A stretch of 32,000 nt of DNA, from positions 3,300,001 to 3,332,000 of the forward strand of contig OY759724.1 in assembly GCA_963662715.1 (NCBI GenBank), given 5' to 3'. The first letter of the stretch is position 1. The number at the start of each line of letters is the position of its first letter. The DNA comes from Candidatus Omnitrophota bacterium. Its GTDB lineage: Bacteria > Omnitrophota > Gorgyraeia > Zapsychrales > JANLHA01. The translations under genes and the position numbers were made by a program. The notes beneath the pieces are model-generated. The model was given only the letters and a program-made list of their open reading frames with translations, was not told the origin of the DNA and made no database searches. This document shows positions 1 through 12,755 of the stretch, in pieces.

Positions 1-3000
1 ATGACCGTGTGATACCCGCCCGTGCGGCTGGTGGCATAATGCAGGGTCAGGCCGGTCCCGGCAACAGGGATATCTTCATGATAAACCCGGCTGCGGCAAG
101 AGACGTAAGAATCTTCAGAAACATCGCTTCTAACGGCATGAGCTTTACATTGATCTGTCTGCTGTTCGACATTAGAGCTTTTTCCGGAATTCGGGTCAGT
201 CGAACCTTCCGGAGGGCCGGACGGATAATTGCAGTCCCAGGCCGAAAAATGAGGCACCTCAACCCGCCAGTATGTATCGCCGGGTGTGTATTCAGATGGG
301 TCATCAAGTCCCGCAACTTCATCCGCATAATCTCCGTCACTGTCCAGATCATCCGGAAGAAAATCGCCGTCCATATCCAGGCTGTCAACAATACCGTCGC
401 TGTTATCATCCAGCAGGGTCACCACCCTGCCGTTTTCTGAAGCGATCCATTCCGCCTGGTCCGGGTCGTAATATCCGACCGGAACAATTTCCCCCACGTC
501 AAACCCTAAAAAGTTATCGATCCAGGTGATAACCGGGTTCTCAAACCGCACGTTGGCAACACCGTCCACGCTCAATTCCACACAATACGTGTAGGATGTG
601 GTCGGCGGCAGGATCGCGGGCATGGATTCCGGGGTTTTAAACTCCGTGGCCCGGATGGTCATCGTCGAAAGAGCGAAAAGGTCATCGCCGTTTTCATCAA
701 CGGCAAAAGCCTGATTGTCGCCGGTCATCACCACAGTGGCTTTACGGGTGCCGAACGTGTCGGTCACCGGGCTGCTTTCATGCAGCAACACGGTTTGTGC
801 ATTGCCGTCCAGGGTAAGTGTCGTGGCTTTTTGGTCTTCGGCTAATAATACCGGGGTTTCAACAATAACCACATCGTTGATAGGCACCTCGACTTTACGG
901 TACGCGGTTATCAGCCCCTGCTTTTGAAAAATCACGTTAAGAGTTGCGTCGCCTTCAACCGGCAGAGAATATTCGCCGCTGGTGTCGGTCTGTACTGTGC
1001 CGTATTCCGGATGACCGTCAATTGTGACCAGGACATCAGGAACAGGGTCGTCATAAATATCCAGCACCTGGCCTCTTATCACGGCAAAAGTATCCGGATC
1101 GTATTCTGCGATAGTGGCATCGTCCGGGACAAGCTGTTCATATTGCTGGCCGTAAGCCCCGTCCGGCTGAGAAGCAGGTTCCGACTGCACGGAAACCAGC
1201 ACCTGCGCGCTGGCCGAGCCGTTAGGCCCGGTGGCCGTGACAGTATACGTTGTCGTATGCTGGGGCGTCACTTCGAGTGTTCCGCTCACCCCGACAGCCC
1301 CCATATCCTGATCCATATACACGTCATAAGCATCTGTTGACGTCCAGGAAAGGGTTGTGGATTCTCCGGCCTGAATCACCGCCGGGTTGGCGGAAATTTC
1401 AATAGCGGGCCGTCCATCATCCACCAAAACTGTTACGGTATCTCTGGCCGTGCCTTCGGGCCCGGTCGCGGTAATGGTATAAGTCGTATCCGTGACCGGA
1501 TAAACAGCCACAGCCCCGTTAGGATCTACTGCTCCGATTTCAGGTTCGATCGTACAAGTATCCGCATCCGTGGAAATCCAGTACAGGGTTGTAAACTCCC
1601 CGGCCTGAATCGCCGTAGGCTCCGCCTCAATGCTCACGGTCGGCGGAAGCGTGGTATATTCGGTGACGACATCAAAATTCGTGTCATGGTTCAGCCAGCC
1701 GTTGGCATCGCCATACTGAATATAATAATAGGCGATATCATTATCAGCGATATCTCCGTAATCCGGGATACTAGTCCAGGCAAATGTCACTGTTATTGTA
1801 TCCGTGCCGATCACGACTTCGCTGTCCCCAGCCTGCAAATTTATGAATTCAGAGCCGTACCCGCCTTCCTTAATAAACCCCGTATCCTTATACCAGCTTA
1901 AGTATCCCCGGTTGGGATTGCCCGAATCATCCTGGTAATTGATCAGAATCGACACCCTCTCCATGGAATCCGGTTCCGGCACGTTAAACACCAAGGTCGC
2001 CTTCTGCACATCCGCACTATTGGCCAGCACGGTTTGTTTATCCACAGTCAAAGAAGAAAGGCCGGCCCGCATATCCTGCACGTCAAAGTTCGTGTCATGG
2101 TTCAGCCAGCCGTTGGCATCGCCATACTGAATATAGTAATAGGCGATATCATTATCCGTTATGCCGCCGTAATCCGGCAGACTCCTCCAGGCAAACGTCA
2201 CGGTTATTGTATCCGTGCCGGTCACGATTTCGCTTTCTGCTGTCTGCAAATCGATGTACTGAGAGCCGTAACCGCCTTCCTTAATAAATCCCGTATCCTT
2301 ATACCAGCTTAAATACCCCCGGTTGGGATTGCCCGAATCATCCTGGTAATTGATCAGAATCGACACCCTCTCCATGGAATCCGGTTCCGGCACGTTAAAC
2401 ACCAAGGTCGCCTTCTGCACATCTGCACTATCAGCCAGCACGGTCTGTTTATCCACGGTCAGGGAGCCTAAACTTGCCCGCATGTCCTGCACGTCAAAGT
2501 TCGTGTCGTGGTTCAGCCAGCCGTTAGCGTCGCCATACTGAATATAGTAATAGGCGATATCATTATCCGTTATGCCGCCGTAATCCGGCAGACTCCTCCA
2601 GGCAAACGTCACGGTTATTGTATCCGTGCCGGTCACGATTTCGCTTTCTGCTGTCTGCAAATCGATGTACTGAGAGCCGTAACCGCCTTCCTTAATAAAT
2701 CCCGTATCCTTATACCAGCTTAAATACCCCCGGTTGGGATTGCCCGAATCATCCTGGTAATTGATCAGAATCGACACCCTCTCCATGGAATCCGGTTCCG
2801 GCACGTTAAACACCAAGGTCGCCTTCTGCACATCTGCACTATCAGCCAGCACGGTCTGTTTATCCACGGTCAGGGAGCCTAAACTTGCCCGCATGTCCTG
2901 CACGTCAAAATTCGTGTCATGGTTCAGCCAGCCGTTAGCATCGCCATACTGAATATAGTAATAGGCGATATCATTATCCGTTATGCCGCCGTAATCCGGC

Positions 3001-3800
3001 AGACTCCTCCAGGCAAACGTCACGGTTATTGTATCTGTACCGGTCACGACCTCGCTGTCCCCGGCCTGCAAATCGATGTACTGAGAACCGTAACCGCCTT
3101 CCTTAATAAATCCCGTATCCTTATACCAGCTTAAATACCCCCGGTTGGGATTGCCCGAATCATCCTGATAATTGATCAGAATCGACACCCTCTCCATGGA
3201 ATCCGGTTCCGGCACGTTAAACACCAAAGTCGCCTTCTGCACATCCGCACTATTGGCCAGCATGGTCTGTTTATCTACGGTCAGGGAACCTAAACTCGCC
3301 CGCATGTCCTGCACGTCAAAGTTCGTGTCATGGTTCAGCCAGCCGTTAGCGTCGCCATACTGAATATAGTAATAGGCGATATCATTATCCGTTATGCCGC
3401 CGTAATCCGGCAGACTCCTCCAGGCAAACGTCACGGTTATTGTATCTGTACCGGTCACGACCTCGCTGTCCCCGGCCTGCAAATCTATAAATTCAGAGCC
3501 GTAACCGCCTTCCTTAATAAATCCCGTATCCTTATACCAGCTTAAATACCCCCGGTTGGGATTGCCCGAATCATCCTGGTAATTGATTAATATCGAAACC
3601 CTTTCGATTGTCTCGGGTTCGCTGGTGCTGAATTGCAAAGTCGCTGTCTGAAGGTCAGAATTATTAGCCAGCACCGTTGTTTTCCCGACAGTTAAAGACT
3701 CCAAGACCGCGGGATCTTCGGCAAAAACCGGAGAAGAAAAACAGGCGATTAATAATACGGCGGCTACTCCTTTGAGAATTTTTTTGCAGTGGCTGGACAT
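1..3800 (-). CDS. Giant secreted (possibly lipoprotein) Rhs/teneurin-like surface protein, N-terminal ~1266 codons; the 3' end runs off the left window edge
   Basis: Not in the ORF track because there is no stop inside the window. Hand translation from ATG at 3800-3798 (SD-like AAAGGAAAAG just upstream) gives MSSHCKKILKGVAAVLLIACFSSPVFAEDP..., a signal peptide with a LIAC lipobox-like motif. It continues with 5 x 137-aa repeats, then two ~80-aa Ig-like modules (PTVSIEAEPTAIQAGEFTTLYW... and PAIEISANPAVIQAGESTTLSW...). Next comes a CarboxypepD_reg-like segment (IRGQVLDIYDDPVPDVLVTIDG). The last part visible, at the window edge, is ...YWRVEVPHFSAWDCNYP...IPVAGTGLTLHYATSRTGGY, which resembles the region preceding YD repeats in bacterial teneurin-like/Rhs proteins. 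No minus-strand ORF ending between 410 and 3800 is listed, so the frame stays open to the window edge. The frame was spot-checked by hand at 3-59 and 1380-1439. Confidence 0.8.
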   Translation of the reverse strand, partial: MSSHCKKILKGVAAVLLIACFSSPVFAEDPAVLESLTVGKTTVLANNSDLQTATLQFSTSEPETIERVSILINYQDDSGNPNRGYLSWYKDTGFIKEGGYGSEFIDLQAGDSEVVTGTDTITVTFAWRSLPDYGGITDNDIAYYYIQYGDANGWLNHDTNFDVQDMRASLGSLTVDKQTMLANSADVQKATLVFNVPEPDSMERVSILINYQDDSGNPNRGYLSWYKDTGFIKEGGYGSQYIDLQAGDSEVVTGTDTITVTFAWRSLPDYGGITDNDIAYYYIQYGDANGWLNHDTNFDVQDMRASLGSLTVDKQTVLADSADVQKATLVFNVPEPDSMERVSILINYQDDSGNPNRGYLSWYKDTGFIKEGGYGSQYIDLQTAESEIVTGTDTITVTFAWRSLPDYGGITDNDIAYYYIQYGDANGWLNHDTNFDVQDMRASLGSLTVDKQTVLADSADVQKATLVFNVPEPDSMERVSILINYQDDSGNPNRGYLSWYKDTGFIKEGGYGSQYIDLQTAESEIVTGTDTITVTFAWRSLPDYGGITDNDIAYYYIQYGDANGWLNHDTNFDVQDMRAGLSSLTVDKQTVLANSADVQKATLVFNVPEPDSMERVSILINYQDDSGNPNRGYLSWYKDTGFIKEGGYGSEFINLQAGDSEVVIGTDTITVTFAWTSIPDYGDIADNDIAYYYIQYGDANGWLNHDTNFDVVTEYTTLPPTVSIEAEPTAIQAGEFTTLYWISTDADTCTIEPEIGAVDPNGAVAVYPVTDTTYTITATGPEGTARDTVTVLVDDGRPAIEISANPAVIQAGESTTLSWTSTDAYDVYMDQDMGAVGVSGTLEVTPQHTTTYTVTATGPNGSASAQVLVSVQSEPASQPDGAYGQQYEQLVPDDATIAEYDPDTFAVIRGQVLDIYDDPVPDVLVTIDGHPEYGTVQTDTSGEYSLPVEGDATLNVIFQKQGLITAYRKVEVPINDVVIVETPVLLAEDQKATTLTLDGNAQTVLLHESSPVTDTFGTRKATVVMTGDNQAFAVDENGDDLFALSTMTIRATEFKTPESMPAILPPTTSYTYCVELSVDGVANVRFENPVITWIDNFLGFDVGEIVPVGYYDPDQAEWIASENGRVVTLLDDNSDGIVDSLDMDGDFLPDDLDSDGDYADEVAGLDDPSEYTPGDTYWRVEVPHFSAWDCNYPSGPPEGSTDPNSGKSSNVEQQTDQCKAHAVRSDVSEDSYVSCRSRVYHEDIPVAGTGLTLHYATSRTGGYHTV
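1650..3704 (-). repeat. Five head-to-tail copies of a 411-bp (137-codon) unit inside the giant CDS
   Basis: Antisense ORF ladders in the track are spaced exactly 411 nt apart (1686/2097/2508/2919/3330 and 1939/2350/2761/3172). Copies 2097-2507 and 2508-2918 differ at 4 of 411 positions by direct comparison. The outer copies are more diverged, especially 3580-3704. Confidence 0.95.
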
Positions 3801-4064
3801 GAACTTTTCCTTTCGAGGATAAAATTGGATAAGGAATAAAAAATTATAAATGGGGTATTTAATAAATTAAAAAACAGAAAATCTATTCAAAGAATCAGGG
3901 GAAAAAATTTATCTCACCCTTCTCTTTTTGAGATAACCCGTCACTGAAAACACATTCATCTCTTTAGAAGGGCGATGATTTATTTAAGGGGTAGTATTAT
4001 TTTACCAGGGGAAAATTTTTTGCCAATCGGCTGACTTGACATTAACTGACTTTTCTTACTGCTT

Positions 4065-4090
4065 TTGTGAAATTTTTTTAAATTTCACAA
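4065..4090. promoter_or_regulatory. Perfect 11-bp inverted repeat TTGTGAAATTT-N4-AAATTTCACAA; candidate operator upstream of the giant gene
   Basis: Read directly from the sequence. It lies in the AT-rich spacer about 265 bp upstream of the ATG at 3800. There is no adjacent U-tract, so it is not a convincing terminator. Confidence 0.3.
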
Positions 4091-4254
4091 AACATAAAGC
4101 AAAAAAAGCCCGCGCTCACTTTCTGTTTGACGAAAATTCCTGTAGTAAAATATTTAATTTATGGGGATAGATAGGGGAAAAATGTGTGAATCTGGGGTAG
4201 TAAAATTATTATAAGATGATTTTATGCAAAAATCAATATGACAAACCAGGACAT

Positions 4255-4296
4255 GTTGCCCTGTCCCTAAAAGGGGACAGCTCCTTTCTTTTTCTT
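4255..4296 (+). repeat. Intergenic motif copy a: GTTGCCCTGTCCC, hairpin and pyrimidine-rich tail
   Basis: GTTGCCCTGTCCC at 4255-4267. The hairpin is CTGTCCC (4261-4267) / GGGACAG (4274-4280) with a 6-nt loop, followed by CTCCTTTCTTTTTCTT. It lies just downstream of the sulfotransferase stop. Confidence 0.6.
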
Positions 4297-4350
4297 GACC
4301 ATCCAGACTACAAAACGTATTTTTGAAACCATTAAAGGGCATTCTATAAC

Positions 4351-5250
4351 TTATAGATAACCCAAATCTTTCAAAACAGGACCTGTAATAGAAACAATTT
4401 CCTCAATAGGTTTAGGATCAGAGTTCTTCCATTTTCCAATTCGATTCTTGTTAGGAATCTCACACAATTGCTCCATATTTTTATAATCTCTCATCCCGAC
4501 ATGATCAAGCATTTTGGAAATGATCTCTTTTGGATTTTGACACAAATCCTCATATCGAAGGACCAAAACCCGCGTATGGTCTCTGTGCGCAATAAGCCGA
4601 GACGTACTCTCCTTCCAAAGAAGGGCTCCAAACATATTTTTTCTAGGAGGATTTTTAGCCTCTTTAGAATGAATGGAATCGAAAGATAATCCCTCATACT
4701 CTTTTATATCAATCTTATTAAAAAAACATTTCTTTTTCAATTTTGTAAACATATACCAATCCGCACGAAATAACAGACAAAATTTAAGATAACCAAGGAT
4801 GTGAGGAAATTCACTAGCCGTTAGACATCGAGTCGGAACACCCATCCCCAACCCCGAAAGAACAACATCCCGACTATCACGAACGATTCCGATAATCTGG
4901 CCACGAGGAAACAATTTAAGCATATACGGAATCATGTATGACAAGAAGGGCATCTTAAAACCCCACGGACGAGAAAAATCAAAGTATTGAGACAAAATTT
5001 TATAAGCTCTCTTGATTTCATTTTGAGTAGGACTCCGTAAACCTTCATGGCGAAGAAAGGCCTTTTGACATAATCGATTAAACTCTTTATTAGAAAAGTC
5101 GTTATTATCGGCTATTATAGCTTTTTTCCCACGACCAAAATCGACCCCCCTCTTTTCAAAAATCTCAACCAGCATCCTCGTTCCCGCATGCCACATACCT
5201 GTGAGAATGATCGGCTTATCAAAAAATAAAAGTCTTTCTTCTTGAGCCAT
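4351..5250 (-). CDS. Sulfotransferase family protein
   Basis: 299-aa ORF. It has a PAPS-binding-like N-terminal loop (ILTGMWHAGTRML), a 3'-phosphate-binding-like motif (RDSRDVVLS) and a C-terminal LRYEDLCQNPKE...LDHVG pattern typical of sulfotransferases. The gene is visibly more AT-rich than the neighbouring tal/tkt genes. Confidence 0.7.
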   Translation of the reverse strand: MAQEERLLFFDKPIILTGMWHAGTRMLVEIFEKRGVDFGRGKKAIIADNNDFSNKEFNRLCQKAFLRHEGLRSPTQNEIKRAYKILSQYFDFSRPWGFKMPFLSYMIPYMLKLFPRGQIIGIVRDSRDVVLSGLGMGVPTRCLTASEFPHILGYLKFCLLFRADWYMFTKLKKKCFFNKIDIKEYEGLSFDSIHSKEAKNPPRKNMFGALLWKESTSRLIAHRDHTRVLVLRYEDLCQNPKEIISKMLDHVGMRDYKNMEQLCEIPNKNRIGKWKNSDPKPIEEIVSITGPVLKDLGYL

Positions 5251-5425
5251 CGTTAACCTCCCTTTATAATTCCTTTAATTTCGAAGCCAAGGGCCTTCAT
5301 TGAAACATCCTTAACGTAGATTCAGCGAAGAATCCTTCAAAGCGAGTTCCGCAGCCGTTCCGCTTTCATTGTCCAAGAGTCGCGGAACGCTGAAAGGACT
5401 GTTTAAGCGAAAAGAGTTCTCCTCT

Positions 5426-5475
5426 CCGAAAAGTTGCCCTGTCCCTAAACGGGGACTGGCCCCTCCTTCTTCTTT
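5426..5475 (+). repeat. Intergenic motif copy b: CCGAAAAGTTGCCCTGTCCC, short hairpin and pyrimidine-rich tail
   Basis: GTTGCCCTGTCCC at 5433-5445, followed by TAAACGGGGAC and CCCTCCTTCTTCTTTTC. It aligns with copy a over about 42 nt and overlaps the last codons of the transaldolase ORF. Confidence 0.6.
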
Positions 5476-6578
5476 TCGATGGCATGGAACAAATCAGCGA
5501 AGGATTTCTTGAAAGCATCTACGCCGTCTGCGAGCAGGCTCCGGCAGATATCGTCTATCTGAATTCCGGTTTGCGGAAGGACTTTAAAAACTGTGCGCGC
5601 TTCCTGTTCATCCAAGGCCAGATCATGTTTCAGCTGACCATGGTCTAAATAGGCAAATAGCGTCTTTTCCGGCACGGTGTTGACGGTGTCTTTCGCGATA
5701 AGCTCTTCCACATATTTGATATCACTGTAGGCGGGGTTTTTGGTCGATGTCGACGCCCATAAAACACGCTGGGGACAGGCCCCTTTCTTTTTCAGCTGAA
5801 GCGCCTGACCGGAAGAAAACAGCTGCCGGTATTTTTCGTAAATGAGCCGGGCATTGGCCACGGCAACCCGGCCCTGCAGAGAGGAAAAGATCGCTCTTTC
5901 ATGATCCGTCTGCGCGGCAAGCAGTTTTTCTTTCAAAACCTGATCGACCTTTGTATCAACACGGCTCACAAACACACTCGCCACCGAATGAATCCGGCGT
6001 AAATCCTTTTGCCGGGCATTGGCCTGCTGAAGTCCGTCCAAATAAGCGGCCGCTGTCTGACAGTATTGTTCGATGGAGAAAATGAGCGTCACATTCACAT
6101 TGACCCCCTGCGCCAACAGGGCTGTCACAACCGGGAACCCGGCTTCTGTAGCCGGCACTTTGATCATCACGTTCGGGCGGTGAACAGCGTCAAAAAGCCG
6201 CAGCCCTTCCTTAATAGAGGCCTCTGTATCGTCAGCCATCAGGGGATTGATCTCCAGGCTCACGTAACCATCCAGAGCATTGGACTGTTCATAAACCGGG
6301 TTAAAACAATCGGCCGCGTCCTGAATATCCCTGATCGTCAAAGCATCGTAAATATCAGGGACAGAACAGCCCTCCTGATGCATGCGGGTGATCACATCAT
6401 CATAATCCGTCCCCCGGCTGATCACCTGGTTAAAAATGGCGGGATTGGAGGTCATGCCTTTCAGGCCTTGCGCGATCCATTCATTCAACGCACCGCTTTC
6501 GATCAGCTGACGGTTGATATAATCAAGCCATATGCTCTGTCCGAAAACAGCCAATTGTTCGAGCTTGTCGGCCGGCAT
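5445..6578 (-). CDS. tal: Transaldolase (long, ~375-aa type)
   Basis: 377-aa ORF with SIWLDYI, GMTSNPAIF and the Schiff-base lysine context VMIKVPAT. SD-like AGAGGAAAG lies upstream of the ATG. Confidence 0.9.
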   Translation of the reverse strand: MPADKLEQLAVFGQSIWLDYINRQLIESGALNEWIAQGLKGMTSNPAIFNQVISRGTDYDDVITRMHQEGCSVPDIYDALTIRDIQDAADCFNPVYEQSNALDGYVSLEINPLMADDTEASIKEGLRLFDAVHRPNVMIKVPATEAGFPVVTALLAQGVNVNVTLIFSIEQYCQTAAAYLDGLQQANARQKDLRRIHSVASVFVSRVDTKVDQVLKEKLLAAQTDHERAIFSSLQGRVAVANARLIYEKYRQLFSSGQALQLKKKGACPQRVLWASTSTKNPAYSDIKYVEELIAKDTVNTVPEKTLFAYLDHGQLKHDLALDEQEARTVFKVLPQTGIQIDDICRSLLADGVDAFKKSFADLFHAIEKKKEGPVPV

Positions 6579-6640: not shown

Positions 6641-7577
6641 ATTTCCGTTTGACCGCTTTCTTGGCCGCGACCGCGATATCCACATCTTTCAGATGATAGG
6701 CTTTGAGCAGTTCCTGCGGAGAACCGGTTTCCCCGAAACGGTCCTGTACGGCAACCATCTCCATGGGAACAGGACAAAAACGCACAAGCACTTCCGCCAC
6801 AGCGCTGCCCAGCCCGCCGTGGATCTGGTGCTCTTCAGCCGTAACAATCGCCCCGGTTTCGGCTGCCGCCTGCTGGATGGCGGAAATGTCGATCGGCTTA
6901 ATCGTGTGCATATTGATCACACGGGCCTCGATCCCGTCCTTCTTCAATATCTCTGCGGCCTGCAGGGACTCGTAGACCATGAGTCCGCAGGCAATAAGAG
7001 TGACATCCGTGCCTTCTCTCATGACCACAGCCTTGCCGACCTCAAAAGGATCCGACTCTTTGGTCATAACCGGAAAAGGCGCCCGGGACGTTCTCATGTA
7101 AACAGGGCCTTCTGCCTGGCTGATCACGCGCGTGGCTTTGGCGGCTTCAACGGCATCCACCGGGCAGATCACCTGTATATTCGGAAGGACACGCATAATC
7201 GCCAAATCCTCCAGGCATTGCGCGGAAGCGCCGTCTTCCCCGACCGTAATCCCGGCGTGGGAACAAACAAATTTCACATTGCGGTTGTTATAGCAGACGT
7301 CCAGCCGGATCATATCATAAGCGCGGTTGGTCATGAAAACGGCAAAAGAACAGGCAAACGGGATAAAGCCATGGAAACTCAACCCGGCCGCCGTGCCCAC
7401 GACATCCTGTTCGGCTATCCCCAGGTTATAAAATCTCTCGGGAAAAGCTTCCTTAAAATATTCCGCCCGGGTCGCGTCTTCCAAATCACCGGATAAGACC
7501 ACAATTTTCTCATTCGTTTTTCCTAATGCCACCAGTTCATTGCCGAAACCGTCCCTGGTCGGGATCATTTCACTCAT
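6639..7577 (-). CDS. Transketolase, C-terminal (pyrimidine-binding) subunit
   Basis: 312-aa ORF with RDGFGNELVALG..., FYNLGIAEQDVVGTAAGLS and typical Transket_pyr plus C-terminal domains. It sits directly downstream of the N-terminal subunit gene. Confidence 0.9.
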   Translation of the reverse strand: MSEMIPTRDGFGNELVALGKTNEKIVVLSGDLEDATRAEYFKEAFPERFYNLGIAEQDVVGTAAGLSFHGFIPFACSFAVFMTNRAYDMIRLDVCYNNRNVKFVCSHAGITVGEDGASAQCLEDLAIMRVLPNIQVICPVDAVEAAKATRVISQAEGPVYMRTSRAPFPVMTKESDPFEVGKAVVMREGTDVTLIACGLMVYESLQAAEILKKDGIEARVINMHTIKPIDISAIQQAAAETGAIVTAEEHQIHGGLGSAVAEVLVRFCPVPMEMVAVQDRFGETGSPQELLKAYHLKDVDIAVAAKKAVKRK

Positions 7578-7606
7578 CTTTTTCTCCTGTTGACTTCTCT
7601 GTAAAT

Positions 7607-8443
7607 TTAATTCGAATTAACCTGTTCCAATTCCGTTAAAGCAGCCTGCAGCTGGTCCGCCTTCGGCGCCTTGCCGTGCCACTGGGATTTTCCCTCCATG
7701 AAAGACACGCCTTTGCCTTTAACCGTATGGGCGATGATAACAAAAGGCTTTTCCGGGACGCTGTCAAACTGGTCCAGCGCGCTGAACAATTCATGAAAAT
7801 CATGTCCGTTCACCTCAACGGCATGCCACCCGAAACTGTTCCATTTGGATAAAAGCGGCTCAAGGTTCTTGATGTCATTCGTCGGACCGTTTTCCTGGAC
7901 TTTATTATAATCAACGATGGCGCACAAATTATCTAATTTATAATGGGCGGAGGTCATGGCCGCCTCCCAGATGGATCCTTCCTGGATTTCCCCGTCGCCT
8001 AAAATACAGTAGGTCTTAAAATCTTTTTTCAGCATCTTGGCGCCCAGGGCGATGCCGTTGGCCACAGCCAGGCCGTGACCGAGCGACCCAGTATTAAATT
8101 CGACGCCGGGTGTCTTGACATGGACATGCCCCTGCAGAGGGCTGCCGTACTTGCGGTAACGCTTCAGCTCCTCTTCCGGGAAATATCCGCTGTCGGCCAA
8201 AGCCACATAAGCGACCGGAGTGCAGTGCCCCTTGGAAATAATGCATCTGTCCCGGTCCGCCCAGTCAGGGTTATCCGGACGATGGTTCATTTTATAATGA
8301 TACAGCGCGATAAAAATCTCCACGGCCGAAAGAGAACCGCCGGGATGGCCGGAACCGGCAGAATGGACGATTTGTAAAATCTTCTTCCGGAATTCTGTTG
8401 CCTTTTCTTTCAGTTCGTTCATATCAACTCTTTTGGTTGTCAC
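7607..8443 (-). CDS. Transketolase, N-terminal (TPP-binding) subunit
   Basis: 278-aa ORF with SGHPGGSLSAVEI and the GDGEIQEGSIWEA TPP motif. The GTG start at 8443 is preceded by AAGGAGG with 5-nt spacing. Confidence 0.9.
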   Translation of the reverse strand: MTTKRVDMNELKEKATEFRKKILQIVHSAGSGHPGGSLSAVEIFIALYHYKMNHRPDNPDWADRDRCIISKGHCTPVAYVALADSGYFPEEELKRYRKYGSPLQGHVHVKTPGVEFNTGSLGHGLAVANGIALGAKMLKKDFKTYCILGDGEIQEGSIWEAAMTSAHYKLDNLCAIVDYNKVQENGPTNDIKNLEPLLSKWNSFGWHAVEVNGHDFHELFSALDQFDSVPEKPFVIIAHTVKGKGVSFMEGKSQWHGKAPKADQLQAALTELEQVNSN

Positions 8444-8628
8444 AAAATCCTCCTTTACTAAGCAGAAAATCAGCTTATAACTAAACCGTTGACTTGTATC
8501 ATTGTATTACATATTTAAACAGTAAATATAGGGAAAGATGGCCAAGGTGATTGTCATGGAATAAACGTCCATTCTTTTTGAAACAATGATTTTTGCGGAA
8601 AACAGCCGAGACATAAGAAGAAATAAAA

Positions 8629-8702
8629 TGGGCCATGGAGGACTCGAACCTCCCGCCCTCTGATTAAGAGTCAGATGCTCTACCAAGATGAGCTAATGGC
8701 CC
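8629..8702 (-). tRNA. tRNA-Lys (anticodon CTT), 74 nt, CCA not encoded
   Basis: The reverse complement reads GGGCCATTAGCTCATCTTGGTAGAGCATCTGACTCTTAATCAGAGGGCGGGAGGTTCGAGTCCTCCATGGCCCA. It folds as a cloverleaf: 7-bp acceptor stem GGGCCAT/ATGGCCC, D stem GCTC/GAGC, anticodon stem TCTGA/TCAGA with loop CTCTTAA, and T stem GGAGG/CCTCC with loop TTCGAGT. Confidence 0.92.
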
Positions 8703-8945
8703 AAATGTTACAACTTATTTATTTTCAATTTTTTAGCACAAAAGGATCTGGTCATCTTTATTCATAATCATCCAATATGCTAAAATAGCGCTATTTTCAG
8801 AGTCTTTATTATACCTGATATACATAGCGTGTAAATTATTTTTTTCGTATATTTGATAGCCATACTCAGTCCTGTGGCCTCCCCTTATCCCTGATCCACA
8901 GCCCCAATAACAGTCCCTTTACGATAACTGATTTATTATCCTGTC

Positions 8946-9420
8946 TTAATTGAATAAAATAAAGGTAATGATTCCGCCCATGTATCCCAGGAAAACCGGG
9001 AAGCTCATTTTCCGGACATACCAGCCAAAGTCCATTTTCTCCATGCCCATCACGACCACACCCGCCGCAGAGCCGATAACCAGCAAACTTCCCCCTGTCC
9101 CCACACAATAGGCAATGAGCTGCCAAAGCGGCGCGTCTTTGGGATAAACGTTGACATCAAACATCCCCATGGTTGAAGCCGTTAAAGGGACATTATCCAC
9201 CACAGAGGATGTGACACCCAGGAAAGCGACCATGACATTCTTGTTCCGGAACATTGTGTCCAGCACATGAGCGATTCGCAACAGGATGCCGGCTGAATCC
9301 AGAGCCGCAACGGTTAGAAGGATGCCTAAAAAAAACAGAAGACTCGAATAATCGACTTGTTTCAATATGCGCGGGACCTGAAGCCTGGCCTTCTTTTTAT
9401 GGGCTTTGTCCGTATACACC
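8946..9420 (-). pseudogene. nhaD: NhaD-type Na+/H+ antiporter, C-terminal fragment (disrupted by the insertion)
   Basis: The ORF reads (V)YTDKAHKKKARLQVPRILKQVDYSSLLFFLGILLTVAALDSAGIL... It continues colinearly from the N-terminal fragment at 11990-12755 once 9421-11994 is removed. Confidence 0.7.
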
Positions 9421-9804
9421 GATAGTGTCGGAAAACCTATTGTAGAAACAAATCTGTACTCTTATACCGGAAATGACCCCGTAAATTGGATAGATCCTTT
9501 GGGTTTGTTGAAGAGGGATCATCGTTTCTGGGAGAATGTCAAAGAAGGGGTAATGAATAATCTTAAAAAGAAGTATGCTAAGTTTAAGAAAGAGAATCCC
9601 TGTGAAGAAGCTCCGCCAATTGCCGGGGAAGATTTGGAGAGCTCATTAGATAAATTTGCAGAAGCTTTTGCCGATGAATTAACAGAGAAAGAATTCGGTT
9701 TCTTGGGCAGGGGCGTTGAAAAAAATAGTGATGCTGTTAAGGAACGCTTAAAAATTAAATATCCTGATTGGCCATGGGAAGAATGGGACATAATTTTTAA
9801 ATGA
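9406..9804 (+). CDS. Orphan Rhs C-terminal tip: end of the RHS core (..NLYSYTGNDPVNWIDPLGL) followed by a ~98-aa unassigned toxin-like domain
   Basis: The end-of-core signature NLYxYxxNxPxxxxDPxGL lies at 9457-9507. Only about 29 core residues are present, so this is not a full rhs gene. The listed TTG start at 9406 lies outside the element, in antisense nhaD, so the true start is uncertain. An internal ATG at 9553 is preceded by GAAGGGG. Confidence 0.6.
   Translation: MSVYTDSVGKPIVETNLYSYTGNDPVNWIDPLGLLKRDHRFWENVKEGVMNNLKKKYAKFKKENPCEEAPPIAGEDLESSLDKFAEAFADELTEKEFGFLGRGVEKNSDAVKERLKIKYPDWPWEEWDIIFK
9416..9420. repeat. Target-site duplication, left copy (ACACC)
   Basis: ACACC lies immediately outside the left inverted repeat. 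An identical pentamer lies immediately outside the right inverted repeat at 11990-11994. Confidence 0.8.
9421..9437 (+). repeat. Left terminal inverted repeat (IRL)
   Basis: GATAGTGTCGGAAAACC; 14 of 17 match to the reverse complement of 11973-11989. Confidence 0.75.
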
Positions 9805-10178
9805 GAAATAACCTGAGAGAGCACGTTCCAAGGCGGAAACTAATATTGGGATGTTTTATGGGGTTTTGCTTTGGTATTCTAATAATCGTTTGCGGGGATT
9901 TTGTTTCAAATATTCCGAATTATTCAAGCAGCTTTTTCCTGAATTCAATTTATTGGGTATGTACCTATTTAGCCAGTGTGGCGGCAATACTGGCAAAGCT
10001 AATATTAGGAACATTCTTTAATAAATGGTACTCAGTGGTATTAAATTTAATCGCATTGATGTATTTTTCAGTATTGGGAATGTGTTGTGTTGTTCTGTTT
10101 AGAAGGGGTAAAAAAATTTTTATATTTGTTTTCATTGCTCTTCTGGTCGTTCATGGAGCAGGTCTGTATTTATTCTGA
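9801..10178 (+). CDS. Putative cognate immunity protein, small 4-TM membrane protein
   Basis: 125-aa ORF whose ATG overlaps the toxin stop (ATGA at 9801-9804). Four hydrophobic segments lie at roughly aa 13-33, 45-70, 76-99 and 104-125. The position immediately 3' of an Rhs tip is the canonical immunity slot. Confidence 0.55.
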   Translation: MRNNLREHVPRRKLILGCFMGFCFGILIIVCGDFVSNIPNYSSSFFLNSIYWVCTYLASVAAILAKLILGTFFNKWYSVVLNLIALMYFSVLGMCCVVLFRRGKKIFIFVFIALLVVHGAGLYLF

Positions 10179-10292
10179 GATGTCCGTAATTTCAAAAAGG
10201 GATTTTCCTGTAAAATAATATATAAAACAATAATGTCGTCGAGATTATGAAGTATAATAGAGGTGTCCGAATAAAAGAAAGGAGCCTCTTGA

Positions 10293-11888
10293 ATGTTAAA
10301 GAATCCCCAAAACCAAGCCTCATTTTTTGATGCTGAGTATATCTGCGAAGACTTAATCCCTGCCGATAGTTACTACCGCAAGTTCAGGGAAATAGTCTTC
10401 CCGCTCATGGATGAGTTGGATTTTGAATCCATGTATTGTCAGGATAATGGCCGTCCGCCGATCTCGCCGAAGTTGTTGGCCATGGCGTTGCTGTTGCAAT
10501 TCCATAAGAATTTGTCAGATCGGGGAATGGAGCGGGCATGCATGTATGATATTGAGATCAAGTATGCCTTGGGATTAAAACTCAACGAGCGACCGTTCGA
10601 TCATTCAAGTCTGGGAGATTTTAGGAAGCGATTGTATGAGCATGGACAAAGCAAGAGGGTTTTTGACCAGATACTCAACAAGTTGATTGAGGCAGATTTG
10701 ATAGAGCGTGATGAAATTCAGCGGATTGATGCGACGCATATGATTGCTGATATTGCGATACCGACGGTGGTGGCGTTGGTCAAGAAAGGCATTCGTGAAA
10801 TATTAAAACCGTTGAAAGGCCAAAAGCCCGAGTTATACGCTAAGGTTATAAAAAATATCGATGTCGAAGAATATACGCGGGAAAAAGTCAACCAGGCGGA
10901 TGAAGGACGGCTGGATATTGAGAAACGGCAAAGAAAGCTGGTCAAGGTCGTTACCGATGCGCGAAACCTTTTGAGAGAAGTCGAGGATGTTAACATGAGT
11001 CGTGGATTGCGAAAGCGGATTGAATTGCTTCAGAGGATACTGCAGGAGAACGTTAAGGAAGCCGACGAGGGCAAGATTGAGGAACGCAAATATAAAGATA
11101 AACCGCCGGACTTGCTGGTAAGTCCGATTGACGAAGACGCGCGGTATGGCGCAAAGTCGGATACAAAAAGATTTATGGGATACAAGGCAAATGTGACAGA
11201 GAGTGTGAAAAATCGGTTGATCACAAATATTGAAGTGATGCCCGGAAACAGACGGGATGGTGAGCCGACAGTGAAGATGGTGGTGGAGCAGAAACTGAAC
11301 GGATTAGTCCCTAAGAAGCTGGTAGGAGACGCGGCGTACGCGGACGGGATGTATAGAAAATTGCTCAAAGATAATGAAACCCTGCTGGTCGCACCGTTAA
11401 GAAAAGTTAATGAAAGTGCACAAAAAATTTACCCCAAAAGCATGTTTTATTACGATGAGAAAACAGGAACAGTAACGTGTCCGCAAGGCGTAAAAACAAA
11501 AACATGTTTTGAAGATCGTCGCCATGGGTTAAAGCAATTTCATTTTCCGATGAGCGCGTGCAATCAGTGTGGCGTTCAGAAAGAGTGTACAAAAGCAAAA
11601 GAAGGACGCCGGACGATAGGGATCAGTATCTTTAATAAAGAGCTGCGCGAAGCCGAAGTATACAACGAAACAGAACAATTCAAAAAGGACATGAAGCTGC
11701 GTCCACCGATTGAAGGAAAGCTGTCGGAGTTGACGCGGTATCACGGCTTAAGGCGCGCACGATATCGAAGGTTATATAAAGTGCGGCTTCAGGGTTATTT
11801 TACAGCGGCTGCGGTGAACATCAAGCGGTGGTTCAAGCTGATTATCGAAGGAATAGCAAGGCACCCGGAGGTTGCGATGGGCTTTTAG
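10293..11888 (+). CDS. IS1182-family-like DDE transposase
   Basis: 531 aa. The N-terminus matches the InsH/DUF772-like pattern (FFDAEYICEDLIPADSYYRKFREIV). It has a DDE region (RIDATHMIADI..., VGDAAYADG), a Cys-rich segment (TCPQG...CNQCGVQKEC) and a C-terminal YHGLRRARYRRLYKVRLQGYFTAAAVNIKR. SD AAAGGAG lies 8 nt upstream of the ATG. Confidence 0.8.
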   Translation: MLKNPQNQASFFDAEYICEDLIPADSYYRKFREIVFPLMDELDFESMYCQDNGRPPISPKLLAMALLLQFHKNLSDRGMERACMYDIEIKYALGLKLNERPFDHSSLGDFRKRLYEHGQSKRVFDQILNKLIEADLIERDEIQRIDATHMIADIAIPTVVALVKKGIREILKPLKGQKPELYAKVIKNIDVEEYTREKVNQADEGRLDIEKRQRKLVKVVTDARNLLREVEDVNMSRGLRKRIELLQRILQENVKEADEGKIEERKYKDKPPDLLVSPIDEDARYGAKSDTKRFMGYKANVTESVKNRLITNIEVMPGNRRDGEPTVKMVVEQKLNGLVPKKLVGDAAYADGMYRKLLKDNETLLVAPLRKVNESAQKIYPKSMFYYDEKTGTVTCPQGVKTKTCFEDRRHGLKQFHFPMSACNQCGVQKECTKAKEGRRTIGISIFNKELREAEVYNETEQFKKDMKLRPPIEGKLSELTRYHGLRRARYRRLYKVRLQGYFTAAAVNIKRWFKLIIEGIARHPEVAMGF

Positions 11889-11972
11889 AAGATTGAAGGG
11901 CGTAAAATAAGTGCGCCCCAAAAATAATGCTCTTTGAAACTGGACCAAAAGTCCAACGGCGGAAAAATACCG

Positions 11973-11989
11973 GGTTTTCAGACGGTATC
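11973..11989 (-). repeat. Right terminal inverted repeat (IRR)
   Basis: The reverse complement reads GATACCGTCTGAAAACC; see IRL. Confidence 0.75.
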
Positions 11990-11994
11990 ACACC
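11990..11994. repeat. Target-site duplication, right copy (ACACC)
   Basis: Identical to 9416-9420 and directly abuts IRR. Confidence 0.8.
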
Positions 11995-12755
11995 CATAAT
12001 AACCCTAATCCCAATAAAACGCTCAGATAAGGCGGCAGATCGAAAACGGCTTTTAAAACAGGGACCAGCAATAAAGCACCCGTCCCTATCAAAAAGACCG
12101 TATTGGTTTCAACGGAGCTGACGCACCGCACTGGCATAAGCCCCTTGGCGTTTTTGCCCTTGATCCGGAAAGAGAAATACAACAAAGGAAGCAATACGCT
12201 CACGAGACTGGAAAAAAACACTTTTTGAATCACCGCAGCAGATGTTAGATATCCTTTTATCCACAACATTGTTGTTGTCACATCCCCTATAGGCGTCCAC
12301 GCCCCGCCGGCATTCGCCGCGACAATAATCATGCTGGCGAAGGTCAGGCGCTCTGCTGTTTTCGGCAGGAATTGATGCAGAAGCGTCATCATAATGATAG
12401 ACGTTGTCACAAAAGCGGAAAGGAAGAACGTCATGAACGTGGTCAGCCAAAGCAGGGACAAATGGCTCCTGGCCTGAATCAGGCGGGAAATAACGCAAAA
12501 GCCGTGATAAGAATCAATAATTTCCACGATCGTCATCACCCCCATCAAGAAAAAGAATATCTGTGCGATATCCGAGACATGGTCATTCAGCTGCTGGAGC
12601 ACCACGGCATCATGATGCCAGCTGTCGATTAAAACAATGCTCCAGCAAAAGAAAGCGAGCAGTATCGCGACGGCAGATTTATTCACTTCAAACTTCTGTT
12701 CGAAAGAAATAAAAACATAGCCGCCGATAAAAACAATTAAGAGGATGATATCCAT
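11990..12755 (-). pseudogene. nhaD: NhaD-type Na+/H+ antiporter, N-terminal fragment (255 codons, then a stop created by the IS end)
   Basis: The ORF reads MDIILLIVFIGGYVFISFEQKFEVNKSAVAILL...LGLGLLWV and then hits a TGA formed at the junction with the element. It is a multi-TM permease pattern. Confidence 0.7.

Follow-up and report, generated by a model that had tools for sequence, protein, structure and literature searches.

IS1182-family transposons with toxin-tip and putative immunity cargo that probably insert in frame into the core ends of Rhs genes

How does the terminus of an insertion sequence (IS) come to lie inside the coding sequence of an Rhs core end, from where it reads in frame into a toxin-type domain? 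This question is raised by a 32,000-nucleotide stretch of DNA from a Candidatus Omnitrophota bacterium (assembly GCA_963662715.1, contig OY759724.1, positions 3,300,001 to 3,332,000 of the forward strand), the whole of which is called the window here and supplies the coordinates of the element under study. The window holds a complete IS1182-family element of 2,569 bp (9421-11989), with passenger genes inside and bounded by inverted repeats and a target duplication. Together with its relatives, this element probably represents a kind of transposon that carries a toxin tip and a likely immunity gene as cargo and would insert in frame into Rhs core ends, replacing the toxin tip found there. As far as comparison of sequences reaches, it establishes the element boundaries, the target duplications, the specificity for site and frame, the diversity of the cargo and the recent mobility of the elements.

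The first base of the element, 9421, opens both a 17-nt inverted repeat and a reading frame. The frame reads DSVGKPIVETNLYSYTGNDPVNWIDPLGL over 29 codons (9421-9507, plus strand), which re-create an Rhs core end, and then continues for 98 residues to a stop codon at 9802-9804. The NCBIfam model TIGR03696 (Rhs_assc_core) matches residues 10-29 with its last 20 profile positions (57-76 of 76; E 6.1e-6); the score of 26.7 bits lies below the 32.5-bit whole-domain cut-off, as expected with only 20 positions present. The motif NDPVNWIDPLGL, the PxxxxDPxGL boundary, is present in this core end. The original prediction, made from the window alone, had read 9421-9507 as the end of an Rhs core running in frame into a C-terminal domain, and the left inverted repeat (IRL) as itself protein-coding. 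Both readings hold: the IRL frame GAT AGT GTC GGA AAA encodes DSVGK, and since about 48 independent copies share the frame, it is not a product of chance. The prediction had also allowed for a coincidental frame, in case other copies began with the same sequence outside any Rhs context. The other cargo-bearing copies do share the start sequence, and always with an Rhs core end and a tip behind it, which argues against coincidence. Elsewhere in the window there are neither other Rhs core-end motifs nor nucleotide similarity to 9421-9507.

Judged by sequence, DSVGK corresponds to the first of the DPxGL motifs in the aspartyl-protease plug at the Rhs C-terminus. C-terminal cleavage of Rhs takes place after two DPLGL motifs that stand 17 residues apart, the second of which contains the catalytic Asp (PMC8636562). 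In the window the second motif, DPLGL, is intact, and the first has become DSVGK, with Asp and Gly kept and Pro changed to Ser. The 19-residue spacing of the IS-borne DSVGK-x19-DPxGL equals that of the host DPIGx-x19-DPxGL, which takes the form DPIGF-x19-DPEGL in the related locus L001.

The two inverted repeats, IRL GATAGTGTCGGAAAACC (9421-9437, plus strand) and the right inverted repeat (IRR) GATACCGTCTGAAAACC (11973-11989, given in its minus-strand reading), pair at 14 of 17 positions. Direct reading of the sequence places the target-site duplication ACACC at 9416-9420 on the left and at 11990-11994 on the right. The intact transposase gene (10293-11888, plus strand) encodes a 531-aa DDE protein that scores 342.3 bits against NF033551 (transpos_IS1182; cut-off 270), with residues 5-516 on profile positions 3-488 of 488. 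It contains the Pfam domains DUF772, DDE_Tnp_1_6 and DDE_Tnp_1, aligns over its full length with 29 relatives, and has homologs that source annotations label IS1182 family transposases. Membership of this family is indicated on both counts, by a transposase model above its cut-off and by terminal repeats with a target-site duplication. In relatives the IRR is conserved and lies 100-270 nt past the transposase stop. A predicted promoter-like block (TGTCGTCGA ... TATAAT; 10233-10258, plus strand), seen in an alignment of six elements, is located upstream of the transposase gene, where the conserved sequence of close relatives resumes to the right of the variable cassette; we infer that it acts as the promoter for the transposase. 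The sequence GAGGTGTCCGAATAAAAG at ~10260 was considered as an inner canonical IRL and discarded, being unconserved in relatives, with best matches at the level expected from shuffled sequence.

Two passenger genes (9508-10178) lie between the IRL and the transposase gene. The first is the tip, the 98-aa C-terminal, toxin-type domain with its stop codon (9508-9804, plus strand), and the second, found in the open reading frame (ORF) list, encodes a 125-aa hydrophobic, membrane-like protein (9801-10178, plus strand), whose ATG overlaps the tip stop (ATGA). A variable domain after DPxGL, followed by a small and tightly linked ORF, is the layout of a tip and its immunity gene, and by its position the 125-aa ORF is a likely immunity gene. 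At 36.5%, the GC content of the cargo (tip and next ORF) is below that of the transposase gene (45.6%) and of the whole window (48.5%).

The site of insertion shows that these parts belong together. To the left lies the C-terminal part of an nhaD gene (8946-9420, minus strand; Pfam CitMHS), and to the right its N-terminal part (11990-12755, minus strand), which now ends in a stop codon of its own at 11988-11990 supplied by the IS end. When 9421-11994 is deleted, the two minus-strand pieces fuse to one 411-aa NhaD Na+/H+ antiporter, which TIGR00775 covers in one uninterrupted match (residues 4-409 on profile positions 5-412; E 7.7e-98). Because nhaD is restored by removing the element, the window copy is best read as having transposed into nhaD as one unit, cargo included. 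The original prediction that a transposase physically moves a polymorphic-toxin tip is therefore supported by a cargo-bearing unit with a perfect duplication in nhaD, and also by a protein of the source genome (P0248) in which the same tip is fused to Rhs.

At the point of insertion, the antisense strand of nhaD reads GTA TAC ACC/CAT AAT AAC CCT AAT, or VYT/HNNPN (slashes mark junctions here and below). Under a position matrix built from the Rhs insertion targets of the family (27 training targets), this site ranks 81 of 58,764 window positions, in the top 0.14% and ~3 standard deviations above the mean. Its score of -0.6 compares with 26.7-41.3 for 22 of the 27 training targets. The nhaD site thus appears to be an off-target landing at a weak mimic of the Rhs target, consistent with a target preference at the DNA level. 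The window tip has no YD-repeat shell; its flank is made up of antisense nhaD, in which a stop occurs 13 codons upstream. On this sequence the tip is parked, unattached to a delivery protein. The source annotation starts the window tip at TTG 9499 (P0249, MGLLKRDH..., 9499-9804), two codons before the predicted cleavage site, so that translation of the parked copy might in principle yield the toxin domain in free form.

Relatives were collected by a genome scan, which returned L001 from an Omnitrophota metagenome-assembled genome (MAG; 79% transposase identity), by a protein search, which returned 466 transposase homologs at E < 1e-30, and by a metagenome scan, which added 80 more loci. Removal of duplicates left 48 non-redundant cargo-bearing copies with transposases down to ~55% identity; by the names given in their sources, relatives belong to Omnitrophota, Bacillota and Thermodesulfobacteriota. 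In the cargo-bearing copies with enough upstream DNA, GATAGTGTCGGAAAA (15 nt, 0-2 mismatches) lies 547-1216 bp upstream of the transposase gene. It always opens D-S-V-G-K-x(3-8)-NLYxYxxNNPxNxIDPxGL, followed by a tip and a second small ORF. On this comparison GATAGTGTCGGAAAA is the conserved left end of the whole IS1182 subfamily. The subfamily is in all likelihood widespread and environmental, with the 3' end of Rhs/YD-shell genes as its usual target.

In L001 an element interrupts a real Rhs core end: ...DPIGFDGGDVDLYGYV/DSVGK... is followed by the tip, the second ORF and the transposase gene, and the IRR by (ATGTT)LNDPVNGVDPEGL..., with ATGTT as the 5-bp duplication. Across the family, 31 of the 43 copies with an evaluable left flank show Rhs-type (L)YxY[V/A/T] at its end, in the same frame, and 25 of 30 right flanks go on with xNNPxxxxD(PxG) past the duplicated 5 bp. 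Of 30 duplications, 16 are perfect and seven more have one mismatch; the consensus is AYGTN. Read as DNA, the target is TAY GTN (Y-x-Y-V codons) at the insertion point and …AAYCTNTAYGGNTAYGTN GGNAAYAAYCC… over the core end, and it is used in a single orientation. The resulting frame is free of stop codons upstream, through YD repeats, to the contig edge in L064 (1,048 aa), L030 (571 aa), L011 (473 aa) and L025 (360 aa). In L084, a called 1,237-aa product with RHS_repeat and TEN_YD-shell domains crosses the IRL into the tip. Attachment to a YD shell is thus seen in L084, L064, L030 and P0248, the source-genome copy, and the same junction occurs in a Bacillota MAG within an orphan array that contains a WapI immunity gene.

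Cargo varies far more than the element around it. The tips of the 48 non-redundant copies fall into 34 unrelated clusters, and the small second ORFs, present at the same position in every cargo-bearing relative, into 39. In cargo-bearing relatives the tip C-terminal domains span ~60-150 residues and whole tip ORFs 90-182 aa. Among the tips other than that of the window, three have hits to known domains of toxins or effectors (Tox-WTIP, Tlde1 and YkuD). Elements that differ in cargo are homologous in two blocks only, one from nt 1 to ~77-88 (IRL to DPxGL codons) and one from ~40 nt before the transposase ATG to the IRR. Near-equal transposases (94% identical, L011 and L014) carry unrelated tips, and a single tip family is found on transposases as low as 55-57% identical, which indicates that cargo is exchanged faster than the transposase diverges.

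Tips of the window's family also occur outside such elements. A word-based search with the 98-aa tip recovered the source genome's own copy alone, and relatives were reached by an exhaustive HMMER search. In P0243, P0244 and P0246, homologs with 35-44% identity and a shared ...YPDWPW..WD motif come immediately after a native Rhs core end. In P0245 the same tip family follows VFRRYHV/SNNPINLVDPYGL, a read-through of the IRR, and P0245 can therefore be taken for a tip displaced by an element of this kind. At right junctions (for example L084 7012/7013 and 9737/9738; L017 5753-5800; P0245), the IRR end and the duplicated 5 bp encode ...VFRRYHV in frame with the tip that was displaced. Such tips thus retain an open frame that starts within the IRR, and this peptide could be used to find them in protein databases. 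Many unrelated tips (for example L009, L044, L057, L061, L063, L077), often glycine-rich or hydrophobic, end in Cys-Lys or in Cys with 1-3 further residues, and their partners are mostly small membrane proteins; the C-terminal Cys may be functional. An integron-like cassette site at the tip/immunity junction, which the Cys-Lys ends had suggested, was rejected, as no DNA motif is shared there across loci.

Copies within single genomes point to recent movement. One 1.9-Mb contig contains three copies of 2,720 bp, with 1-2 nt of difference among them. A full-length Rhs gene (L084) carries two of these as a tandem at its 3' end, each flanked by ATGTG; behind them comes an older element, whose tip is different and whose transposase is truncated. 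The third copy lies at an unrelated site with its own duplication, AACAT. That new insertions stack at the same 5 bp suggests that the left half of the target is sufficient. In the 3.36-Mb source contig of the window, the cluster of tip proteins holds three sequences with differing upstream context: P0249, which is the window copy; P0241, reading MSLYEYA/DSVGK...; and P0248, reading ...YYYGTRYYNPRIGRFLTADSVIPDYYNSQSLNRYSYV/DSVGKPIVETNLY... (...SLNRYSYV/DSVGKPIVETNLY...), in which the tip is fused in frame to an Rhs core end. The source genome accordingly carries at least three copies, one of them Rhs-fused. Near-identical copies at different sites of one genome, together with these three tip versions, are indirect evidence of transposition, and the family appears to have been mobile recently. 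L001 adds a 2.9-kb block (Rhs core fragment and element) duplicated at 2557-5479 and 6668-9590 of that Omnitrophota MAG locus, with 98.3% identity, 4,111 bp apart. An upstream Rhs ORF (44-1981), which still has a tip of its own, contains a core with 95-96% identity to both core fragments. Besides transposition, segmental duplication or recombination is therefore at work.

The sequence of events that we propose would begin when the transposase places the element, in a single orientation, directly behind the Y-x-Y-V codons in the core end and duplicates 5 bp (AYGTN). The in-frame IRL would join the Rhs shell to DSVGK-x19-DPxGL and so rebuild the double-motif aspartyl-protease plug and its cleavage site, behind which the element's own toxin would follow. 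The resident tip and its immunity gene would be pushed downstream as an orphan, and repeated insertion at the same 5 bp would stack tips. We infer that the fusion protein is made, folded, cleaved and delivered, and that the second ORF confers immunity.

Several observations weigh against this proposal. The copy in the window lies outside any Rhs gene, and the rank of 81 among 58,764 positions indicates a weak preference at its site; neither its tip nor the partner ORF has a Pfam or NCBIfam match. The Rhs-fused copy of the source genome, P0248, is known as a 208-aa protein only. Across the family, Rhs-like sequence is absent from 12 of 43 left flanks and a perfect duplication from 14 of 30 copies. 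Most loci come from metagenome contigs, many of them short, which can be chimeric or collapse repeats. As to the protein, the first motif is DSVGK instead of DPxGL, and the fusion enlarges the plug by ~19 residues (95 against the 76 positions of the profile), so that folding could be impaired.

Other explanations account for parts of the evidence. The original prediction held that an ordinary IS1182 element downstream of an rhs tip and immunity pair had mobilised the pair once by means of an IR-like sequence in the rhs core, used as a surrogate left end. The IRL region is indeed homologous to an Rhs core end, and the loci L017 and L062, in which a contiguous core end, tip, immunity gene, transposase gene and IRR occur without an IRL, could be states that precede such a capture. 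A similar event may have founded the subfamily, and surrogate-end capture is a possible ancient origin for it. For the window copy, however, the model is unsupported, since repeated use of surrogate ends would yield variable ends, whereas the IRL shows 0-2 mismatches in 15 nt throughout ~48 copies with unrelated cargo and with transposases up to 45% divergent. The search near the transposase gene for an inner, canonical IRL gave nothing above chance (the mean best match has 6.9 mismatches, against 7.2 in shuffled sequence), and even cargo-less derivatives keep a decayed core end behind the IRL. Monophyly of the cargo-bearing elements with one shared IRL would contradict repeated capture, and such a state is already largely seen. 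Altogether, we regard this route as improbable. Only slightly better is the prospect that the transposase has no more than a loose preference for AYGTN and that the enrichment in Rhs genes stems from selection retaining in-frame fusions. Off-target insertions exist (window, L083, L002, L033, L037), and the matrix score of the window site is low. Yet 31 of 43 independent flanks agree in nucleotide, frame and orientation; short orphan fragments are hit as well, although a benefit for delivery is doubtful there; elements re-insert in tandem at the same 5 bp; and off-target sites that are not in coding sense still mimic the target, as does the antisense VYT/HNNPN of nhaD. This makes selection alone an unlikely cause.

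Homologous recombination deserves consideration in its own right, as the original prediction had taken the retained 87 nt for homology by which the tip could recombine onto a full-length rhs gene. Such homology is not needed, because relatives reach Rhs genes by transposition after YxYV with 5-bp duplications, but recombination probably contributes besides transposition, as the mismatched duplications and the IRL-less copies L017 and L062 suggest. To go further and regard the IS as a passive passenger of rhs orphan arrays, whose tips move by recombination on the core only, would fit the one-mismatch duplications in seven copies, the differing left and right flanks of several, the 2.9-kb duplication of core fragment and IS in L001, and the IRL-less copies, in which tandem NLYxY repeats may have recombined. 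It is very hard to reconcile, though, with the 16 perfect duplications in 30 copies, with cargo-bearing copies that have duplications of their own in non-Rhs genes lacking core homology (nhaD in the window, L083), and with near-identical copies at unlinked sites of one genome. Least credible of all is that the passenger ORFs serve transposition or regulation as accessory proteins and resemble Rhs at the N-terminus by accident. Neither passenger of the window has a family match, and most tips of the family are unannotated, but accessory proteins would be conserved with the transposase, whereas there are 34 tip and 39 partner clusters; the matches to Tox-WTIP, Tlde1 and YkuD, the occurrence of the window tip family behind native Rhs core ends and the low GC content of the cargo also speak against this reading. 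In-frame insertion of a tip-bearing transposon into Rhs core ends is therefore the reading that we retain.

Further forms of the element were encountered. Most loci scored without an IRL have too little upstream sequence, and the informative ones are L012, L017, L047 and L062. The IRL-less fusions L017 (2120-5777) and L062 (~799-3248) run from a native-looking core end DPIGFGGSDFNLYAYVGNNPVNRIDPTGL through a tip, membrane-protein ORFs, a transposase gene and an IRR to a displaced tip. They resemble elements that became fixed, and thereby immobilised, when the DNA separating the NLYxY of the host from that of the IS was deleted. Cargo-less derivatives of 2,016 bp (L050-L055, for example L054 3715-5730, and L079) carry the IRL GATACTGTCGGAAAAG 274-286 bp upstream of the transposase gene and keep the decayed core end DTVGKAPGMNVYRRAADNPHQLPRSGG behind it. 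These derivatives insert outside Rhs genes, into a repeated palindrome (CCAGTGGTAAAGT / ACTTTACCACTGG), with the duplication AAAGT. Tandem or nested left ends occur at L016 34-145, L028 ~127-185 and L070 3420-3600, one example being DSVGKPLSDLNLFLYA/DSVGKPLSDLNLFLYAGNDP, and the core-end copy of an element is thus apparently usable as a target for another insertion.

At the left edge of the window lies a giant gene (3-3800, minus strand), which starts near 3800 and runs past the edge. Its N-terminal part contains 4.7 tandem copies of a 411-nt (137-aa) unit with 94% identity (array 1672-3602). Behind the array come domains of the types Big_12 (Ig-like), carboxypeptidase-regulatory-like and teneurin TTR-like; the part within the window shows no YD repeats. 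When the visible C-terminal 500 aa were used as query, the relatives obtained were all fragments, of 278-872 aa and with 37-60% identity. Source names assign them to MAGs of Desulfobulbaceae, Electrothrix and other Deltaproteobacteria, and NHL or teneurin-type domains occur in some. The giant gene probably encodes a YD-shell protein.

The element combines known kinds, an IS1182 with passenger genes and the displacement of Rhs C-termini. To our knowledge, Rhs displacement has been explained by homologous recombination on the core, with the vehicle for new tips left open. Integrases near Rhs loci have been the subject of speculation only (PMC5727410), and orphan toxin/immunity modules have been described for rearrangement hotspot elements in connection with Rhs C-terminal displacement (PMC3150448). 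As in that displacement, a new tip and immunity gene replace the resident pair at the PxxxxDPxGL boundary, the old tip is orphaned downstream, arrays build up, and the cargo has a lower GC content than the core. Here, in contrast, a DDE transposase would insert the tip, with a 5-bp duplication and with the junction inside the core-end motif, after YxYV. IS1272, a staphylococcal member of the IS1182 family with a transposase gene only, targets inverted-repeat structures and shows tandem IRL-side duplications (PMC5678879). Our elements share its type of transposase and terminal inverted repeats, and their nested IRLs (L016, L028) and the targeting of palindromes by the cargo-less derivatives resemble what is reported for IS1272. 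They differ from it in their 0.45-1.1 kb of cargo, their protein-coding IRL, the 5-bp AYGTN duplication and a target that encodes a protein motif.

Transporter IS (tIS), a concept of ISfinder, hold passenger genes inside the inverted repeats of an IS. The passengers described here likewise lie between the IRL and the transposase gene and move with the IS, in the window, where the duplication in nhaD bounds the whole unit, and also in L083. Unlike the fixed gene of a tIS, however, the passenger is a hypervariable cassette, an incomplete 3' exon-like module that would be functional only by in-frame fusion to the target gene. C-terminal segments are also swapped by the R64 shufflon at pilV and by Gin/Cin inversion of Mu/P1 tail-fibre genes, and islands that target tRNA or tmRNA genes replace the 3' end of their target. 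These systems have in common with ours a recombination site within or at the end of a coding sequence, where incoming DNA gives a new functional 3' end. They use serine or tyrosine recombinases and draw on a fixed local repertoire or restore the same sequence, whereas here a DDE transposon brings a domain from outside and can land elsewhere. H-rpt elements of the ISAs1 family occur in Rhs elements of E. coli and, as far as we know, neither encode tips nor fuse in frame. A Burkholderia transposon that encodes contact-dependent inhibition moves a whole cdi locus (PMC6350997). In both of these a mobile element is physically tied to polymorphic toxin loci, as it is here, but in contrast to the Burkholderia transposon, the tip module would enter a resident delivery gene. 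Searching the full-text literature, with subscription journals outside its coverage, we came upon no account of an IS whose terminus lies within an Rhs core end, nor of transposition as a means of replacing tips.

We tentatively extend the proposal to a selfish, toxin-swapping family, a view that we hold with less than even confidence. The inverted repeat would be coded twice over, for binding of the transposase and for the first plug motif, and an on-target insertion would re-arm the Rhs shell of its host. With the immunity gene indispensable, carriers would kill cells and kin that lack or lose the element, an addiction or drive at the level of the population, and stacking would be a main source of the orphan-tip arrays of environmental bacteria. 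Apart from this extension, the elements, as autonomous transposons that recognise the DNA of the conserved core end, would provide a rare bacterial case of a transposon bringing a protein domain into a host gene, with an inverted repeat under dual constraint, and possibly a design principle for programmable swapping of C-terminal domains. For annotation, tip ORFs beside IS1182 transposases are to be read as cargo and not as random orphans, and the IRL with its 29 codons is an anchor for mining unannotated toxin/immunity pairs in metagenomes; ~50 loci gave 34 tip clusters, most of them without a family. The arrival of new tips in Rhs and other polymorphic toxins, and their displacement of resident ones, has so far been credited to horizontal transfer and homologous recombination, with no vehicle identified. 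The elements described here would be such a vehicle, and they offer a testable mechanism for the displacement of tips and the growth of orphan arrays.

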